DNA of 64,000 nt. Origin: Octopus vulgaris (taxonomy: Eukaryota). The position numbers and the translations under genes were made by a program. This document shows positions 11,365 through 44,375 of this stretch, in pieces. The number at the start of each line of letters is the position of its first letter. Positions within the stretch are counted from its first letter, which is position 1. The stretch is taken from NCBI GenBank assembly GCA_951406725.2, contig OX597817.1:66464001-66528000 (forward strand), read 5' to 3'. Below the pieces are notes generated by a model. The model was not told where the DNA came from. It saw nothing but the letters and a program-made list of their open reading frames with translations, and did not search any database.

Positions 11365-11753
11365 ATATAGTGGTTGGCATTAAGGAAGGGCATTCAAAAC
11401 TGAGTGCCCTTCCTTAATGCCAAAGCACAAATTGGATCACAGTGCAATCCTCCAACTAATCAGATCCTGTTGAACTATACAACCCATACTAGCATGAAAA
11501 AACATTAACTGATGATGATCATGATGATGAATACAAAAGGAGTATCTCTTCTCATGCAGTAAAAGGGTTTATATGTCATCAACAGTACAGAATATTGAAA
11601 GTGGCATACTTTATGATATGAATTATAGGCAGTACTGGACAAAAAGTTAATACATATTTAGAGAAAAATGAAAGAAAATGAGTTATTCAATTGTTCCTGA
11701 ACTGGAAAGAAAGGATTGTGTTATTAATTGCAATTGAAAAGTTTTATCCTTAC

Positions 11754-11983
11754 TTGTGCTTTCTTTCTTTTCAGCTCATCTGGAAATTCATCATAGTAGC
11801 TTCGAACATTTTCTTCAAGGTCCAGCCCTTCATCTTGAGGCCATGAGCCACTAAGTCCTGTACTAGGAGCTAGAGGTGTGCTGTTTGAAAGAGGAGGGGA
11901 TGGGTCACTGCGGTCTGAATTATAACTAAATACACCGCTGCTAGTCAAACTACTTGATTGCTGGTTTTCAGGAAGACTCTGGC
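11754..11983 (-). CDS. ZNF395: Next coding exon of the ZNF395/ZNF704-like gene (Ser/Pro-rich region, acidic patch, basic NLS-like stretch preceding the C2H2 finger)
   Basis: Acceptor cttctgctctttatcag|, donor |GTAAGG. Length 230 nt; phase 1 joins the upstream exon in frame (A|GC=Ser). Encodes QSLPENQQSSSLTSSGVFSYNSDRSDPSPPLSNSTPLAPSTGLSGSWPQDEGLDLEENVRSYYDEFPDELKRKKAQ, which parallels the recalled ZNF704 segment ...TPSPP...DDGIDE...FDEPIPRKRK just before the zinc finger. I did not find the finger exon in 1-11753. Confidence 0.88.
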
Positions 11984-14143
11984 CTGATAAAGAGCAGAAG
12001 TGTAAAAAAAAAAAAAAACATGGAAAAAAATTAATTGTAATATTAAAGAGAAAAAAATAGTAAAGAGAAATTTAATCATTTTACAGGCTATATTAATTTT
12101 CTAAAATCAATGCCTGAGCAACTGCCTTTTTTTAATTTTTAATTCAGACTAAAGTATATGAACCATTATTGGTCAAACTGTAAGGGTGAGCAATTGCTTT
12201 TATTCCTATTTAACAGTTGAAAGTGAGCTAACATGCTAACATGGAAAACGGACGTTAAATGATGATGATGATGATGATCAGTAGCATGCCTTATAAGAAC
12301 CTAGCGTTGAAAAATGCAAAGAGCATGTCTACTAGATATTAGATATTCACAATATAATAATTAATAAACAATTTGAATGTATTTCAGATTTAAATAAATT
12401 CTAATGATTATAAGGGTGTCAATTTACTTCTGTCATGTCTGTGTATACACACACACACACAAATACATACATACACACATATTTATACATGCACACATGT
12501 ATATGTGTATGTATGTGTCTCAGAGGATCTTTGTCTTGCAAATTACTTGGTAACCCTGCCAGTGCTGGTGTCACATAAAAAGGTATCCAGTCAACACTGT
12601 AAAGTGGTTGGCATTTTGGAAGGTCATCCAGCTGTAAAAACCATGTTAAAACTGACATTGCCTGTGCTGGTGCTATATAAAAACACTTAGTCCACTCTAT
12701 GGGGTGGCTGGTGTTAGGATGGACATCCTACAGTTAAAACCATGCCTAAACAGACATTGAAATCTAGAGCAGTCTTCTGCTTAGCTAGCTCCTATCAAAC
12801 TGTCCAAGCCATGCCAGCATGGAAAGCGGAATGTTAAATGATGATGATGATGATGGTGGTGTGTGTGTGTATGTTTGTGAAGTTGGTGTGAATTAAGAAA
12901 GGTTGGCACTATTTCTAGCAGGTTGAGTGACCATGTATAAGTTCCTTCAATGGCTTGAATATCATTAGTCTAAGCCAGTGGTTTTCAACCTGGAGTCTAC
13001 AGACCCCACAACCAAAGTACTGGGGTCTGTGAGCTGAGTTCAAGATTTGCTGAATAAACAGATCTTTGAAAAGCCTGCCATTCAAGGAAAAATTCATATC
13101 AATAGACCTTGTGAATAAAAAGGATAACTTTTTTTTTTATTATTCCTTAAAACTAATAAATGACATTGCTGACCATCCCATATTTCAACATAGTGTCTAG
13201 GGTTACATTAAACTAATGTATCCTACTTTTTCTCTTTCAAGCAGAAGGTAGATTTGGCTGCTACTTCTGGCAAGTCAAACAATTGCAATGAGGATCCATT
13301 GATGGCATGTAATTTTTTTTAATGCAATGAAGTTGCCAAGAAATTATTTCTAAAGTTAACAAACCAAAATGTTGATATTCCTACTAGTAAACTGGCTATA
13401 AAGTATGTTATTAGCTTAACTGATTTTGTTAATTCTTTTTGAAATACAGCTTTCTTTAAAGGAACTGCTTTATTGGTTATAAGGACAAGTATAAACCAGA
13501 ATATAATTATTGATTCATGCTGGCATGGGAAAAACCATGGTTTTTCCCATGCTAGCATGGATCAAACAAGTTATGTAGCATTTATTCCTTGTGTCCCAAT
13601 TCAAATACATATTTAATGAGATTGTGTCTGGAGTGTTTTTATGATTATCTCTTTCCAATTATCAACCACTCTGATGAAAAGTTATACATATTGCTAATTT
13701 CTAATTTATAGTTCATCTAGATATTCTCATTTACTTTTGATGTACTATTTATGCAAAATGGTCAGTTAACCTCAAATATATAGCATGTTTCTTGTTCTCT
13801 GCTCCAAATTTTTGTGTGCACAACAGCAAACACCCAGAAATCAACACAAGTTAAAATTATATTTTTTAAAGTTATAATAAGTAAAAATTTTCAAGAATTA
13901 ATCAATATGAACAATGATTTCCCACTAGAAAAATAAACACTACAAAAGTAATAAAAACAAACCTAACAAAAAATAAAATAAAATGTCTTATAACTAGAAT
14001 TTCCTTTTCTCAAATCCAATACGTTACATTAGTCACGTTTTCAACTATTTAGCAAGCAGGAAGCATTTGTGGTTTTACAGATTCATCCTAAATCCCACTC
14101 TCTCTCTCTCTATCGTGTATATATATACACACAAGCATGTATA

Positions 14144-16085: not shown

Positions 16086-17312
16086 AAAGATTTTTGACAA
16101 AAAAACATTTTAAAGGTTTTTGCATTTTTCAAAACAATTCTTTGAGCAAAATAGTGTAATAATGTGCATTTAGTAATAATTTATAATTTAAGCAGACGGC
16201 AACAATTTTGAGCTTCAGTAATAAGGTGGGTGCTTTATTTTACTGAATCTGAAAAGATGAAAGCTGAAGATGACCTTAGAGGACTTCAATGCTAGGTATG
16301 ACAGACAGGATGACAAACTGTAACAACGAAGACAAATGAAGTAATATATGTCAGTAGAGAAAAGAGCAAAAAGGAATAATTATGCAGATAAACCCTTAAA
16401 TGTGAAACAGAATAAATTGTTAGAAAGCTTGCTTGTCATATGTAGGTTTCCTTCAAACTTTGTTTACTCTGTAAAGGATTCAGTTTTAGTATTGATAAAC
16501 AACAACAAGAACTAAATTTACTGAAATCTATATTTTGATTAAAACATACAGAAACACAAACAAACAAAAGCACTCAACAGTATAATAACAAAACTACTTT
16601 TTAGAACACTGTTTTCTTTGTGAGGGTTCCAGTTGCATTGCTGAAACCAAGTTGAAACTTATCTTTAGACAAAATACTACCTAATTAACACTGTCATAAC
16701 ACTTGACTCTTTTAGAGTATTGACAAAAATCTGGGTTAGATGGTGATGTATCAGCATTGTAATAATATATCAAAGCTGCCATCAGCTAAATCAACTTTCA
16801 GAGAGTTTAATATATTAGATAACTGTAAGATAGACTTTCAGATACAAACCCTGCTATAACCATTATAACTTCAAAAATCAAATATTGGTTTCTGTAAACT
16901 GTATAAGAGGAAGAAAGCAATGTGCACGACTTTTGCAGGTCCTATCAGGCTGATGTGTTTGATGTCCAGCCTGAGCATCTGCAGGGAAAATGTGAGTGAG
17001 AAGGGAATTAGGGAATCTGGTCAGAATGTTTATGTTATGACATAAGCACCGGCTAATCAAGTGGCGGTGTTAACAGATTGCTATACTTTTCAGTTAACTA
17101 CTCAAACTAAAGGCATCCAAGTACAAGTATTATTAATTGCTATACATTTGAATGTTTAGCATTAAAACTAGCATGCCACTAGAAGAATTTGCACACCCAT
17201 CCTACCTGTATTAGTTTAGGATTTGGAGGGGAGCAGCTAATGTAAAAATACAAATATAAATATCAATGGTCATTCATGTAAAATATGAAATATATAATTA
17301 GATTAAACATAC

Positions 17313-17458
17313 TTCTTTCTCCAAACATAGCAGGGATTTTTGGAGAAGCTGGGCTACAGGACAAGCTTGTAAGGACCAAAGCTGCCATCCGTTCATCCAT
17401 CACTTCCATATCATCATCAGCAGGTTCTGTTTCTTCACCCATACTGCGTCTGTAGCGT
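17313..17458 (-). CDS. ZNF395: Internal coding exon of a ZNF395/ZNF704/SLC2A4RG-family (Glut4EF-like) zinc-finger transcription factor
   Basis: Encodes RYRRSMGEETEPADDDMEVMDERMAALVLTSLSCSPASPKIPAMFGER, which matches the family motif (human ZNF395 EMDEMMAAMVLTSLSCSP, from memory). Acceptor ttctgttttcag| (AG at 17460-17459), donor |GTATGT (17312-17307). Length 146 nt, phase 2 in and phase 1 out. The symbol denotes the family; the exact paralog cannot be assigned. Confidence 0.9.
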
Positions 17459-17691
17459 CTGAAAACAGAATGAATGTGATTCATGAATCTCAACATATGC
17501 AAAATTATAAGAATGATATATAATAATGACATTATAGGACAGGAGACAATGTAATCAAACTTACAATCAATTTAATGAAAACTGAGATATATTAATGTGA
17601 GCCATATCTGTTTCAAAATCAACAAGTGTATATGTATATGTGTGTGTGTGTGTGCACGCATAACAATTTGTTACTGCAAACTTCTCTCTCC

Positions 17692-27625: not shown

Positions 27626-30600
27626 CAAAATAAGCAACACGGATATCCAGAGGTAATGCAGTATGATCGTTTCATGCAACCCCATTTAATTAAACAATGC
27701 AATCATTACATCAATTTAAAATGCAGACAATCTTCAGCTGCACAAAGACATAGAATTTAATTAAATCAGAACAGATGCATACACTAGTATAATTATACCT
27801 AAAATCTCTAAGAAGTTAAGGAGATAGACAAAGAACTTGCTGTCTCACTCCAGTTTAGAAGTTACTGAATTTTCCAAGAAGATGTACATTGTTACAGACT
27901 CTGCCTGTCACTGATTTGTTTTTGTTTTTATGGGATCAGTTTTAATTTAAAAACTAGTTTCCCTACCCCTAACAGATACTGCCCTCTGTTCTCTCAGCCT
28001 TAGATATACAAGGGATTTGATAAACTAGTTATTCTCCAACCCATCCCAGCATGGAAAGCAGACGTTAAATGATGATGATTAAACATATATATATATACAC
28101 ATATGTTTGTACTTCTTAGAAATTTGGTAATTCAAATAATGCAGTGCAACTCAACAAATTAGAAAGAAGAATCAATATATCAATATGTATTTATTTATAG
28201 ATACATACAACATGATGAACTCAAAACAATGGACTGAGTATTTATGAGGTGAGATACAAACATATTTAGATAACAGGAATTCCAAAACAAAAAAATAAAG
28301 GTAACGTACTAACAACAATATTAGCCAATAAGATAATCTAGATACCAGAACTTGATAAAATACAACTATTGCTTTCTTAGTTTTAAGAATGTCAATTATA
28401 ATAGCAGAATATGCTAGCACTTTCTCTGATTGCCTGTATAAAGACAGATTTTTTTTTTTAAACTCATGTGTATAAATTCTATTTCGGTTTTTGACACCTC
28501 TTGAAAGCAAAGTCTTCATCAAGCTAACAAGAGAGTCTCAATGTAGTAGGTTAATCTTTTAGAAACAGCAACCAAATCTCTCTCAAACCAAACTCTACAA
28601 TTTTATAACTGGAAGAATACATTGGATGATGGAACTCCCCAACCAAAAACAAACTGGTATGATCAAGACTGAAATATTTTTGATTATAGGTCAGTTTAAT
28701 TAGGACTGATCTAGGGTTAAACATCTTAATTTTCTAGCAAAAAATAAATAAATAAAAAGAGGTCAATTGCCTCCATCAGTATATAAATTCAGAAAGTAGA
28801 ACAAAAGTAAATATTATTCTAAGATTCTAAGGTATTTAGCATAACATTCTAACTCAGTGCCCTAATCTAATTAATAATATGAATGATTTTTAACATAGAA
28901 ACAAAACACCACATTCTGAGGTAAGCCTACAGTTAATAAAAATAGACACACTGCTTGACTGATATTTATTTTATCAACCTTAAGAAAAACAAAATTGGCT
29001 ACAGTAGGATTTGAACTAAGATCATAACTAAATACTTTATGGCATTTTTTTCCACCACTCTACCAATTCTGCCATGCCTCCTTGTCCTACCCCAGCACTG
29101 CCACCATTTAATATTTGTTTTCTATGCTGGCAAAGGTTGGATGAGTCAGCAGGAGGTAGTGAACCAAAGGACTGTGCCAAGCTTCACAGTCAGCTTTGGC
29201 ATGGTTTCTATAGCTGGATGCCCTTCCTAATGCCAAAAACAATATTGATTTCTTACATAATCACTAGGTCATAAAAATTCGGAGAGAAGGAAAGTGGATT
29301 ATATCAATCCAAATAATAGATTGGTATTTTATTTGATCTGGAAAGCCAACTCCAGTGAAATTTTAACTCAGAATGTAAATCACTGTAACTAAATACTGCT
29401 AGTTATTTCATTCAGCTTGTTATATCATTGATGATAGTAAGATTTTGACAATGGCATCTGACATCAAGATATCTGCAATATCTACAAGTGAACCAAATTT
29501 CACTAAGTTAAAGGACATACTTGATACAATATATGATTTGGGGACAGTCACTAACTGTTATTAGAATATGAGCCAATTGAGAGATCCTTTATGCAGTCAC
29601 TTTACCTACTGGAAATAGCAGCCAATTTTCTCAAAATTTACTCTACCTTCTTAAAAAAAGGAAGATAACGAATAATGTAATGCAATGCTCATAAAAAAGT
29701 TATATATATAAAAAAAAAAGACTGGATAATCATGCTAAAGTATCTTTGATTATAGAACTACTTGATAAGGGCCAACTCAGGCTACATAGCAACAACTACT
29801 GGGTTGTTGTTGTTAGTTTATATGTAGTACAAAAATATTATGAGCGAACGTCTAGGCTTTTGACTAAAGGAGATGTGAGCAGAGCTGATCAAATAAAAAG
29901 AAGAGTCTTTGAAATGCAAACTAAGTAAAATACCAGGAAGACTAAATTGACACATTAAAACTGATATGATGGTACTTGAGATGAGAGCATGTGACAGGAA
30001 TATATTTCAGATTGCATCATACACCAAGTTGTCATTTTCTGAAGCTCTAAACGATAACCAAATAGAAAATTGGGGTTTCTTTAGTGTTTTATTAGGTTCA
30101 GTAACTGAACAGTGGCCATACTGGAGCATTATGTTTAATGATTTTGGTTGAATATATTATCCTCTTTAGTTTGTCTGGTATTAATTTTATTGAAGTAAGA
30201 CTAAAAGCACTAATTTTGCCAACATGTCAAAACACCCACTACAAACGTGAGAGAAAGAGAGAGAGAGAGAGAGAGTGCGTGTGTATGTACACAATGCACA
30301 CACATCTGATAGGCTTCTGCACAGTTTCTGCCAATATACTTGAAGTTATGGTAGAAGACTTGCTCAAGATGTCATACATAATGTTCTTGAACTAAGATTT
30401 GACAAATGAATGAATTTCATAGTATTGATTATTCCTGTGATCCCATTTAACTGAAGTCATATTTGAATCAAGCTTTCTTTTTTTCCCCCTTTTTTCATGC
30501 AAAAGGTATCAACAGTCTGAACCAAACCATAACCAAAATCTTTTGGATGTACTGTAGTCTTACATGAATCTAACCACAGTATTTATCCCTCAACTTTTCT

Positions 30601-34420: not shown

Positions 34421-34482
34421 TCCTAAACAATAGATCACTTATTTACATTTGATGGATATTTGTCCTCATCTTGTTTGTTGTT

Positions 34483-34528
34483 AACACAACATTTCGGCTG
34501 ATACACCCTCCAGCCCTCATCAGGTGTC
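34483..34528 (-). ncRNA. Minimal type-I hammerhead ribozyme motif in the PLE 3' terminal region
   Basis: Minus strand reads GACAC-CUGAUGA-G-GGCUG(gaggguguau)CAGCC-GAAA-U-GUU-GUGUU. Stem I is GACAC/GUGUU, the CUGAUGA and GAAA core boxes are intact, stem II is 5 bp, and stem III is vestigial (AAUGUU, presumably from palindromic AACGUU). Minimal hammerheads are an established feature of PLE terminal repeats. Confidence 0.8.
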
Positions 34529-34586
34529 TTGGGGAAATTTCAAACCTGGGTTCTCATTCCTAAGGTATTTTTCGATGCTGTTATCG

Positions 34587-34653
34587 CTGCCTGGAATTGA
34601 ACTCGGAATCTTGGGGTTAGTAGCCCACGCTCTTAACCACTAAACCATAAGCC
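34587..34653 (-). promoter_or_regulatory. tRNA-like internal Pol III promoter (A box + B box) within the PLE 3' region
   Basis: Minus strand TGGTTTAGTGG (A box, 34647-34637), anticodon-like arm GGG-CTACTAA-CCC, then GAGTTCAATTCC (B box, 34604-34593). The acceptor stem does not pair, so this is not a functional tRNA. Confidence 0.7.
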
Positions 34654-37130
34654 TGAAGGCAATTATGAAGCGAGTTTTAGGGCTTATAAATCTAATATTT
34701 TCCTATCCTTCCTTAATATTGTTTCCCACATGCTATTCATATCTGCACTTGGTCTGCTTAGGAGGTTGTTTTGTCCTAGCATATGTGCTGCTTCTTTTGA
34801 TTTCTGTATTTTCCAGTGGTGTTCTCGGTCTATTATCTTAACTTCATCCCACAGGGAGGGGTAGTCTCCATTTTTCCATACATCATCAGCTATACCCAAT
34901 TTATCAATATCTCCACGTGTCACAGCTTTGCGATGTTCCTCTACCCTTATTTTGTGGGGTCAGCATATTTCACCTTTATATAACCTACCACAGCTGCATG
35001 GGATGGAGTACACACAGTTTTTGGTCATATTTTCTTCTATTGGTGGTTTTACTCAAAGGAGATATTTGCGAAGTGTTGTATTACTCTTGAATACTGTCCT
35101 GATGTCATATGGGATGCATATCATTTTGGAGAGGCCTTTCACGTAGGGTAGACAGACTGTGGACAGTTTATTGGTTTCATCCTCTCTTTTATTCATAATT
35201 GGAGTGGATAATATGTTTTGGGGGTAGATGTTGCTTAATAGATTGATCATTTCCTCATGGTAGGTATCATGATCACTACTTATATTCTTTGCTCGATGTT
35301 TTAGGCATTGAGCAATCCCTCTCTTTACACTATGGATGGTGGGAACTGAAGTTGAGGTATTGTCCAGTGAAGGTCAGCTTGCGGTATACGGATGTCCTTA
35401 ATCCATACTTGGTGCGTGTTATCAATACATCCAGGAATGCTAGCTGATTGTCTTTTTCTTTTCCATTGTGAACTGTATGGATGGAATTATTGAGTTCACA
35501 TGATCTAATAGCACTTGGACATCTCCCTGGTGAGGCCAAAGTATGAAGGTAACACCTTCATATCACAGCCATTTGGGTCGGTTTCAGTGGTGTTGATCCT
35601 AAAGCCAAATTCTCAAAGTATTCCATGCATATATTGGCTATTATCAGTGATAATGGTGAACCCATAGCTAAACCCTCTTCTTGTCAATATATATCAGTGT
35701 CCATACTGAAGTAGGTAGTTTCTACACAGAAGGTCAACATTTCCATCAAGTTTCTTCTGGGCATACTAGCGCGTTCTTTTAGATGGGTGTCTGTCACTAG
35801 TTTCTCTTGAATCACCAGTTGGGACTTTGGTGAACAGACTTATCACATCTAGACTCCCCATCTGGCTGGATTCAATGTGGGGGTATCCTTGATCAATCCT
35901 GTGAAGTGGGTGGAATTTTTCACGAACAATGTTGACTTTCCTGCTAATGGAGTGATTATATCCACAAGGAAGCGGCTCAGTGGATGACATGCTGAACTGC
36001 TAGGCTCACTATAGGTCTTAATGAAATACCATCATTGTGAATCTTAGGGAGACCATACATGTGTGGTAGTTTACTGTAGTGCTGAGTCAGTTGTCTGTAC
36101 TTTATTGGTGTAAAGTGATCCTTGTTCTTGATCAAGATCTGTGACAACTTCCTCTCTGTTTTCAGAGTTGGGTCTTTCTTTACTTAGCTGTAGCTACTAT
36201 CACTTATAAGACTTGCCAATTTTTCCGAGTAGTCAGACTTGTTCATCATCACTGTAGCATTTCCCTTGTCTGCTGGAAGTATCATGATGGAATTGTCACT
36301 CTGTAGTCTTTTCATAGCGAACTTTTCTTCCTGAGTGATGCTTGGTTTGGTAAGTTTCGCCTTTTCTAGTACCTGTCTAACTTTCCACCTTAGTTCATCT
36401 CCCTGAGCTTTTGGTATCTTTACAATATCTCTTCAATAGGGGCTATTATGTCAAAGTATGGAATGCACTTGATGGTTGTCGCAAAGTTGAGACCTTTGTT
36501 TAGTACTGCTTCTTCAGAGCTTTCTAGATATTGGCTACTTACATTAATTACTGCTTTAACAGGTGGGTGACAGACATCAGTCTTCATTCTCTGACCTTAT
36601 AAGATCCACTGATTTCAGTTAGTGACTTATTCATGAATATACCAGCACTAGCACCCCTGAGGGTAATATTCTCTGGGAATGCACAAAAGCCCTTTTCAGA
36701 GTTATTTGTTGTGGATTGTTATTATCTCATATCTGATTAGCCTGTTATTATGTAACATGCTTCAAGATTTTAGTATAGATACCTTATTAGTATTTCCTTC
36801 CAACTTCTATGTACTCTGGGAATGCATTAAAGCCATTTTTGGGGCTACTTTATTTGAATTCTTACTATCGGGTAAATAATTTCACGTTATTACATAACTG
36901 ACTTCACAATTTGAGTATTCATAACTTATTGTGAATTCTTAAAAACAAAATCCTGTGTAAGATAGTTTGGTATTCTCTGTAAATGCACAAAAACCGTTTT
37001 AAGGGCTACATACTTTGTATTGTTGTTATTGGATTAGTGAAACAATTATGAGAATGGAACCAAGATATAAGCCCTGCTTTCATGGGAATTACTGGGTATT
37101 TCAGCTAGTATATCTATATCTATCTATCTA

Positions 37131-43744: not shown

Positions 43745-44375
43745 ATCAACATCGTTTAACATCCGTTTTCTGTGCTAGCACAGATTGGCAGTTTGACCAG
43801 GGTTTGGAAAGCCAGGAGGCTGCACCAGGCTCCAGTCTGATCTGGCAGTGTTTCTACAGCTGGATGCCCTTCCTAATGCCAACCACTCCATAAGTGTAGT
43901 GGGTGCTTTTTACGTGCCACAGGCACAGGTACCAGGTACCACGATCGGTTGGTGCTTTTTACGTGCCACCGGCACAGAAGCCAGTCAAGGCGGTGCTGGC
44001 ATCGGCCATGTTCGGATGGTGCTTTTTACGTGCCACTGGCACAGGTATCGCAACTACAATTTCCATTTGATATTTATTTTGATGTTGATGTACTTGACTC
44101 AATAGGTCTCCTCAAGCACAGCAGGTCATCCTACGATCCAAGGTAAGCACAGCAGGTCGTTCTGCAATCCAAGATACTTTGGATGGGCAGGGGCCATGTG
44201 AAACTGGTGCAGGAAACGGCCATGAACTCATGTTATTTGTCGGGTCTTTGCAGTCGCAGCATATCTCCAGAAATCTCAGTCTTTCGTCATTGCCTCTGTG
44301 GGGCCCAGCGTTCGAAGGTCATGCTTGACTACCTCATCCCATGTCTTCCTGGGTCTACCTCTTCCCCGGATACCT
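43745..44375 (-). mobile_element. RTE LINE 3' end (ORF C-terminus plus 3' UTR ending in a GAT-type tail)
   Basis: Minus-strand GRGRPRKTWDEVVKHDLRTLGPTEAMTKD*DFWRYAATAKTRQIT*, followed by the UTR shared with copies at 15098-15413, 55423-55620, 56498-56945 and 12540-12855. Confidence 0.85.

Follow-up and report, generated by a model that had tools for sequence, protein, structure and literature searches.

Described systems and the octopus locus

Among described Penelope-like elements (PLEs), PAc of the green anole (PMC11167929) combines a reverse transcriptase (RT), followed by a C-terminal GIY-YIG endonuclease, in one open reading frame (ORF) with a pseudo-long terminal repeat (pseudo-LTR) that includes the ORF start, a hammerhead ribozyme that overlaps this start, a pair of 3′ ends separated by about 33 nt, and inverted 5′ arms. 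These traits recur in a PLE of Octopus vulgaris, one copy of which we examined within a 64,000-nt stretch of contig OX597817.1 (assembly GCA_951406725.2, positions 66,464,001 to 66,528,000; this whole stretch is the window, and positions are numbered from its first letter). Unlike PAc, for which the part of the description used here mentions no tRNA-derived portion, most octopus copies begin at a head derived from tRNA-Arg, and solo repeats outnumber those linked to an ORF. The locus belongs to an abundant Penelope element and is the terminal repeat of one of its dead copies, and the unit formed by tRNA-derived head and hammerhead is the pseudo-LTR of that element, with the head in promoter position; we consider it probable that the head acts as a working RNA polymerase III (Pol III) promoter.

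Other systems share parts of this arrangement, and they too are compared from portions of the papers cited. The minimal hammerheads of metazoan PLEs (PMC4209133) resemble that of the octopus element in having a short stem I, a long stem II, an extra base between positions 9 and 10.1, a G10.1–C11.1 pair, and a palindromic helix III, and in occurring mainly as single dispersed motifs, but no tRNA head is described in the portion compared. In the high-copy Schistosoma repeats Sm-alpha and Sj-alpha (PMC6765202, PMC2770079), a Pol III-type promoter precedes a hammerhead, so the pairing of a tRNA head with a hammerhead is, as such, already known; these repeats, however, are noncoding and tandem, and cleavage frees their unit, whereas the octopus pair sits in the repeat of an autonomous element, with the ribozyme in coding sequence and with ends that the ribozyme does not set. 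The TRIMp3 elements Cassandra, Helenus, and Ajax (PMC10886601) likewise carry a Pol III promoter derived from a small RNA in their terminal repeat, with boxes kept and structure lost, but are nonautonomous, noncoding LTR elements of 0.3 to 1.3 kb, whereas the octopus repeat is that of a non-LTR element which is coding and 2.8 kb long. Animal non-LTR retrozymes (PMC7229834) share a type I hammerhead in a short repeat and a presumed dependence on PLE proteins, but form hammerhead-to-hammerhead circles from tandem arrays, and no such arrays were seen in the 100 octopus loci read; neither “pol iii” nor “polymerase iii” occurs in that paper. Finally, nonautonomous elements of Chlamys, such as MRC1 (PMC8557442), are PLE derivatives that lack the ORF and have pseudo-LTRs as well as 3′ similarity to autonomous families, but they belong to a different PLE clade, and no tRNA head is mentioned in the part of the paper considered.

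Our literature search, outside which subscription journals, Repbase Reports, and supplements (including the repeat library of PMC13282606 and the SINEBase sequences) largely lay, recovered no PLE with a tRNA-derived pseudo-LTR, and the parts consulted of the octopus repeat annotation and of the squid genome paper contain no such arrangement. The prevailing view is that autonomous LTR and non-LTR elements are transcribed by Pol II and that Pol III promoters are confined to short noncoding passengers (PMC10886601, in part; PMC3531059). The octopus element is a high-copy variant of a known element type, and the more interesting claim, which has indirect support, is that an autonomous element carries a Pol III promoter.

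Composition of the element and its terminal repeat

The element has a single ORF, in which RT is followed by a C-terminal GIY-YIG endonuclease and which is covered by open blocks in sister copies. Sister copies match RVT_1; relatives carry PF00078, PF26215, and PF28514 (with PF01541 in two rows); and two regions are 29% identical to an 836-aa Anolis carolinensis protein, named “uncharacterized” in its source, that we infer to be PAc-like. A direct repeat that includes the ORF start, as expected of a pseudo-LTR, stands at both ends of the ORF in loci L256, L252, and L238, and the arms and tails are those of Penelope/Poseidon elements, in which one arm is inverted and 5′-truncated and one end may have a tail of 30 to 40 bp, with an inverted arm in 68 of 100 loci and with short and long 3′ ends paired. 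By domain order and pairwise similarity, rather than by an RT tree, we place it as a Penelope/Poseidon-type element. In the window, its ORF is 5′-truncated and decayed (34684..36598, minus strand, as are all parts of this copy), with RT and then a GIY-YIG-type endonuclease, many stops and frameshifts, and a terminal TAA at 34686–34684; sister copies reach 5′ beyond 36598. Pfam returned no family for four fragments from the window, and the endonuclease is assigned from motifs and from relatives.

An earlier note, made from the letters alone, had described a tRNA-like module with A and B boxes, a second B-box-like sequence, and a hammerhead core behind this ORF, and direct inspection of the minus strand finds every one of these motifs where the note had placed them. 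A spacer that is seen in ORF-linked copies (34662..34683) separates the stop codon from the tRNA-Arg-derived head (34585..34654). Within the head, the A box TGGTTTAGTGG (34637..34647), recognized from sequence and column counts, and the B box GAGTTCAATTCC (34593..34604), which in the window copy has a CpG-type change where the majority reads TTCGA, both correspond to the majority letters in aligned copies. The acceptor and T stems, by contrast with these retained boxes, are broken (unpaired in the one copy that we laid out), which is more in keeping with a promoter than with a structured RNA.

The origin of the head is apparent from comparison with tRNA genes. The window head is identical to a tRNA-Arg(ACG) gene of the source genome (L257) at 47 of 74 positions, with an alignment score of 42.5 against a mean of 26.0 (sd 2.3, maximum 34.5) for 1,000 shuffles. 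Among 43 tRNA sequences with 12 isotype labels, a set that does not include every isotype, tRNA-Arg is the best-scoring tRNA for all 76 heads tested (46 ACG, 27 CCG, and 3 TCG). Standard programs detect little of this: ARAGORN reports no tRNA in the window copy, and the Rfam tRNA model gives the window head only 16.3 bits (E 1.8). The source genome also has tRNA-Arg genes in a tandem array that repeats every ~207 nt (G000:C2:211887730-211907120, L394).

Terminal repeats of the family have the head as a constant component, a point that the earlier note had proposed to check. In the source genome (2.8 Gb, 227 contigs), a gapped pattern running from the spacer to the leader has 274 matches with the head and 0 without it, and the 20-mer between stop codon and head, of whose 896 exact matches we followed the first 30, runs on into a head or head remnant in 30 of 30 cases. 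Exact 20-mer matches rise over 55 nt from 896 before the head to 5,148 in the head and 7,056 in the hammerhead. Stop codon and head are also bridged in contigs from four sequencing runs, from organisms labelled C to F. We had considered an independent short interspersed element (SINE) insertion as the source of the head, and reject it on the 0 headless junctions against 274 and on 12 tail-less heads that lack a common alternative tail; because the head is constant across copies, the separate insertion that the earlier note named as its own refutation does not apply.

The head stands at a fixed position ~100 nt upstream of the ORF start codon. Between them lie an (AAT/AAC)n spacer and a short leader (34558..34584); the length of the (AAT)n spacer varies widely between copies, and in the window copy it is almost lost. 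The remainder of the pseudo-LTR (34439..34557) repeats the first ~40 codons of the ORF, with ATG at 34557–34555, and translates at its start as MRTQV*NFPKTPDEGW in the window copy. Since the start codon lies here, the supposed second B box GGTTTGAAATT (34536..34546) consists of codons 4 to 8 of the ORF, is one arm of a weak hairpin, and in its majority form is without the final C of a B box; we therefore read these letters as coding sequence rather than as a promoter. For the same reason, the minimal type I hammerhead (34483..34528) occupies codons 10 to 25. In extended copies, hammerhead and tail continue straight into RT in a single frame (309 codons in L228), and in a relative with 54% identity (P0010) the N terminus is homologous and a hammerhead-like peptide is encoded there. 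An intron after the tail was entertained and dropped, as the frame is open without one.

The hammerhead itself has a 5-bp stem I, a 6-bp stem II with an extra base ahead of it, a palindromic helix III (AUGU in the window copy, ACGU in the majority), and a predicted cut site between 34488 and 34487. In the majority sequence of 87 aligned copies, the CUGANGA and GAAA core, both stems, and the ACGU palindrome are all retained, the consensus having thus kept the core that the earlier note recognized in a single copy. AACGUU is the family majority (C in 64 of 84 copies, G in 53 of 84), and the suspicion that AAUGUU impairs the window copy agrees with a predicted dimer helix of +0.8 kcal/mol, versus −3.5 for AACGUU (duplex energy only). 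Losses among copies are mainly of the CpG type, and the strict core pattern is intact in 37 of 100 sampled loci. The free core position, which is also a third codon position, is T or A in the source genome and C in two other labelled organisms. For the window copy, Rfam at gathering score gives zero matches, its hammerhead models give none at E ≤ 5, and single-strand folds are no better than those of shuffles (hammerhead z −1.2, head z −0.06). The motifs nonetheless exceed chance, given the tRNA-Arg match of the head and the hammerhead core and stems kept in the majority sequence.

Solo copies and their ends

The expectation that head and hammerhead would also occur without the ORF is borne out by thousands of exact 20-mer matches. 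To characterize such copies, we read the first 100 matches of a head 20-mer, all on contig C1 and including two pairs of arms from the same insertion and two pairs of duplicated loci: 81 heads are solo and 19 are ORF-linked, a ratio of about 4 to 1. The hammerhead part follows 88 of the 100 heads, and the other 12 have no shared tail except in one duplicated pair.

The 5′ ends of these copies gather at the head. In 56 of the 100, the 5′ end falls between −7 and +3 of tRNA position 1 (34652..34661 in the window, the zone of the inferred RNA 5′ end), 25 begin inside the head, and 19 extend upstream, which amounts to 12.8% of ends per nucleotide in the 10-nt zone versus 1.1% inside the head and 0.4% upstream. 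The figure of 56 comprises 45 ends in the raw alignment, 38 of them at −1 to −7, plus 11 reassigned by motif after the alignment had run into an inverted arm. A short palindrome overlaps the zone: 14 of the 56 copies have an arm symmetric about it, 17 more (for a total of 31) bear a snap-back sign, and 25 show neither; these 25 palindrome-free starts still fall within 10 nt, against 19 copies that pass through. A GTTAAC palindrome also gathers copy ends. A cluster of 5′ ends at ORF +109 was set aside as partly an artefact of a 9-nt repeat.

At the other extremity, 3′ ends are bimodal, at ORF nt 118 to 130 and 148 to 163, and lie 50 to 90 nt beyond the predicted ribozyme cut; the window copy ends at ORF nt +119 (34439..34445) and belongs to the shorter class. 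Copy ends set by the ribozyme cut were considered and rejected, the few ends near +72 coinciding with a palindrome. Among two-armed insertions with both ends classed (L009–L206), 41 of 45 combine a short with a long 3′ end, which is what two RT molecules, each starting at one of the two sites on a single RNA, would give. Target-site duplications (TSDs) of 10 to 12 bp surround the whole unit in 4 of 11 one-armed solos (a mismatched-pair control reaches 7 bp in 12%). Solo copies thus bear the marks of Penelope insertion (PMC8557442, PMC11167929): inverted arms, two kinds of 3′ end, and TSDs. The family provides, in large numbers, genomic support for internal RT initiation at two sites, one per target strand. 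Pieces from 250 to 360 nt inside the ORF occur at solo-arm junctions (L050/L051 and the upstream arm of L335), which suggests that the template RNA contained ORF sequence.

Solo and ORF-linked copies appear to be drawn from one pool. We compared 55 solo copies with 40 that are ORF-linked, having set aside four ORF-linked loci and one solo as duplicates. Common variants do not differ in frequency (lowest p 0.078), although a small solo-only subfamily could escape such a comparison, and the two groups diverge from the column majority by 5.2% (solo) and 6.1% (ORF-linked; p 0.22); given shared variants and like divergence, a single source pool is the simplest reading. The solo units correspond to the SINEBase definition of a SINE (PMC3531059) in being short and noncoding and in having a head that goes back to a Pol III RNA, but neither form a distinguishable lineage in that comparison nor end in a simple-repeat tail, the (AAT)n being internal in a repeat whose head runs on into the hammerhead part in 88 of 100 cases.

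These results divide the earlier proposal of a self-contained unit for Pol III transcription and self-cleavage. The pairing is genuine, as the tRNA-like module and the hammerhead are both real and the module is constant in the terminal repeat; the unit is nevertheless not self-contained, in that the hammerhead lies inside the first codons of the ORF, the copies end well downstream of the predicted cut, and the solos possess no private variant. Nor is the suggested analogy to retrozymes supported: the 100 loci that we read contain no hammerhead-to-hammerhead tandem arrays (a few solos are in direct tandem), and the ends do not follow the hammerhead cut. In contigs from organisms D and F (runs X17 and X19; L002:1770 to 1648), the tail end is joined back to the leader, giving a head-less tandem hammerhead unit of ~125 nt; these two organisms also have additional common variants, suggesting a different subfamily.

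Solo copies are prone to be misfiled as ordinary SINEs in repeat libraries. Ohshima and Okada reportedly described in 1994 the octopus tRNA-derived SINEs OK, OR1, and OR2, with a tRNA-Arg origin for OR1 and OR2. The solo unit and OR1/OR2, compared by description only, possibly share the same tRNA source and could be identical. OR2 is listed as a CORE SINE in the portion of PMC4758252 consulted.

Transcription of the element

If the head is the promoter of the element, as its retained boxes and the position of the 5′ ends suggest, some copies starting at the head should enter the ORF, and they do. We read 90 of the 117 exact matches to a 20-mer that lies ~180 nt inside the ORF: five insertions (L322, L323, L325, L333/L334, and L335) begin at the head and end roughly 200 to 460 nt into the ORF. 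Most of nine extended matches were at first candidates for full-length elements and proved to be solo repeats with long 3′ ends. A further locus, L252, whose spacer contains an inverted simple repeat, begins 2 nt before the head and extends over the entire ORF as far as another head. Among other ORF-contiguous 5′ repeats, one is ambiguous (L353), two begin inside the head, and three reach upstream into a preceding 3′ end.

The second line of evidence concerns runs of at least four T, which act as Pol III terminators. None occurs on the sense strand of the window copy (2,160 nt, with 25 A, 7 C, and 1 G runs) or in the column majority (2,724 positions), where 3.1 would be expected under synonymous shuffling (P 0.02), 4.3 under third-position resampling (P 0.007), and 4.7 under base shuffling (P 0.005). 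In decayed copies of the family, 112,371 bases contain 40 runs of this kind. As a control, we used a more distant PLE family rather than a close headless Poseidon family: its 819-codon frame, similar in T content (22.8%), has 10. Twelve other retroelement frames, judged as such by eye, have 21 in 10,338 bases, nine further frames having been excluded as nonretroelement or as belonging to the second PLE family.

The following scenario could account for these features. An ancestor of the element would have captured a copy of tRNA-Arg into its repeat, and transcription would then begin at −7 to +3 of the tRNA and continue into the ORF. RT would initiate internally, in the way reported for the anole element, at one of two sites that lie ~120 and ~155 nt inside the ORF start: initiation in the repeat nearest the RNA 5′ end would yield solos of 250 to 350 nt that stop at the RNA start, and initiation in a downstream repeat would yield ORF-bearing copies. 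Priming of one target strand at each site would give arms placed back to back, of which one has the short end and the other the long, and were uncut RNA the template, the ribozyme would leave copy ends unset. The least certain step is the last, in which a sense strand without TTTT could be traversed by Pol III over its full 2.8 kb. Internal RT starts, a tail, and dispensable ribozyme cleavage are reported for PAc (PMC11167929, in part), and PLE promoters have been located in the pseudo-LTR (PMC8557442, PMC6765202, both in part). That the autonomous, coding retrotransposon switched to a captured tRNA-Arg promoter, with its whole 2.8 kb made by Pol III, TTTT purged from its ORF, and SINE-like solos shed in their thousands through that promoter and the internal RT start sites, is a scenario that we put forward tentatively, as one that could well prove wrong. 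If it is true, a Penelope RNA that starts at a tRNA head and has no Pol III terminators would be an exception, and would raise the question of how such an RNA is translated; a Penelope-dependent SINE could be born directly from a pseudo-LTR; and solo repeats would map the RNA 5′ end.

Several observations weigh against Pol III transcription of the element. Three other-element frames of ~0.75 to 0.95 kb also have no run of at least four T; runs of at least four G are absent too (P 0.04 to 0.3); the protein is poor in phenylalanine (17 residues, 2.1%, with 2 of 120 relatives as low); and the T-run statistic comes from a single ancestral sequence and was computed after the absence of runs had caught attention. 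The 5′-end peak includes the 11 assignments by motif and the 31 copies with a palindrome sign, which means that the palindrome contributes to it, and the three 5′ repeats that extend upstream of the head indicate that upstream read-through also happens. RNA-seq reads (three runs of one study) are about equal in both orientations and show no pile-up of starts or ends, a pattern that an unstranded library, or embedded copies that are transcribed passively, would give and that is silent on the promoter. Among indexed runs, no RNA sample was listed as a carrier of the sequence. An uncapped Pol III RNA would, in addition, need another route to translation. Known PLE promoters lie in a pseudo-LTR with an intron (PMC8557442, in part), and a Pol II start might coincide with the head; furthermore, the part of PMC10886601 consulted argues that autonomous elements must use Pol II.

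Alternative explanations

The solos could be a self-propagating SINE: with the internal promoter retained along with the sites of RT initiation, each solo would be transcribed anew by Pol III and mobilized in trans, and the autonomous element would still be made by Pol II; such a state of affairs can coexist with a Pol III promoter on the element itself. It would explain why short units with a tRNA head and, in some cases, TSDs are about four times as frequent as ORF-linked heads, but we think it rather unlikely in view of the missing diagnostic variant, the like divergence of the two groups (5.2% versus 6.1%, p 0.22), the head-starting copies that continue into ORF sequence, and the ORF-internal fragments at the junctions of L050/L051 and L335. 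Alternatively, the head might be no more than a passenger, or might belong to a Pol II promoter, with the pile-up of 5′ ends produced by a coincident Pol II start or by joining or fold-back at the palindrome. The promoters already located in PLE pseudo-LTRs (PMC8557442, in part) lend this some weight, as do the 14 of 56 copies that are symmetric at the palindrome, the 17 others with a snap-back sign, the gathering of ends at the 9-nt repeat at ORF +109 and at GTTAAC, and RNA-seq without a pile-up of starts. Against it, 25 of the 56 have no sign of the palindrome and yet start inside the same 10 nt, versus 19 copies passing through, and depletion of TTTT is not among its predictions. The zone from −7 to +3, moreover, is where a type 2 Pol III promoter initiates, and on balance we regard this explanation, too, as unlikely.

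Two further possibilities appear very improbable. Were the head a tRNA mimic, a cut by RNase P at +1 could create the RNA 5′ end and gather copy ends near tRNA position 1; most of the clustered ends, however, lie 2 to 7 nt upstream of +1 (38 of 45 raw ends at −1 to −7), the acceptor and T stems do not pair, and folding gives no cloverleaf. A retrozyme cycle, in which tandems are cut from hammerhead to hammerhead and circularized and the circles are reverse transcribed, would be in keeping with a minimal hammerhead that is intact in the majority, with the few solos in direct tandem, and with the head-less tail-to-leader joint in contigs of two other organisms. It would also call for ends at the cut, whereas 3′ ends lie 50 to 90 nt beyond it, 5′ ends lie at the head without circular permutation, and the ends near the cut are accounted for by a palindrome; among the 15 of 63 RNA joints listed, none joins the cut back to the head, although these come from ordinary RNA-seq libraries, which are ill-suited to circles. 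We accordingly continue to favor the tRNA-Arg head as the probable Pol III promoter of the element.

Additional features of the window and of related families

The second PLE family that served as a control (L263–L292, e.g., L282) is much younger, with open frames of more than 800 codons and 93 to 95% identity between copies. From its motifs, we take it to be Neptune-like. A motif scan found no tRNA head in this family, and a pattern search found no canonical hammerhead after the ORF in most of its loci. P0001 and P0010, which are among the nearest relatives of the element described here (53 to 65% protein identity), share its low content of phenylalanine (2.2%).

Around the window copy, the flanks at 36599–36612 and 34426–34438 (minus strand) are loosely alike and may be a decayed TSD. 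Elsewhere in the window, two minus-strand frames (11724–12071 and 17263–17571) resemble exons of a host gene, with the Penelope copy upstream on the same strand; the motif in one of them is presumably that of ZNF395/ZNF704-type proteins. Repeat families D16, D17, and D19 (e.g., 29169–29236, 1795–1865, and 43792–43910) are dispersed and are probably common SINEs, and long (TA)n tracts and tandem tracts of 17 to 19 nt lie near 61800–62700.

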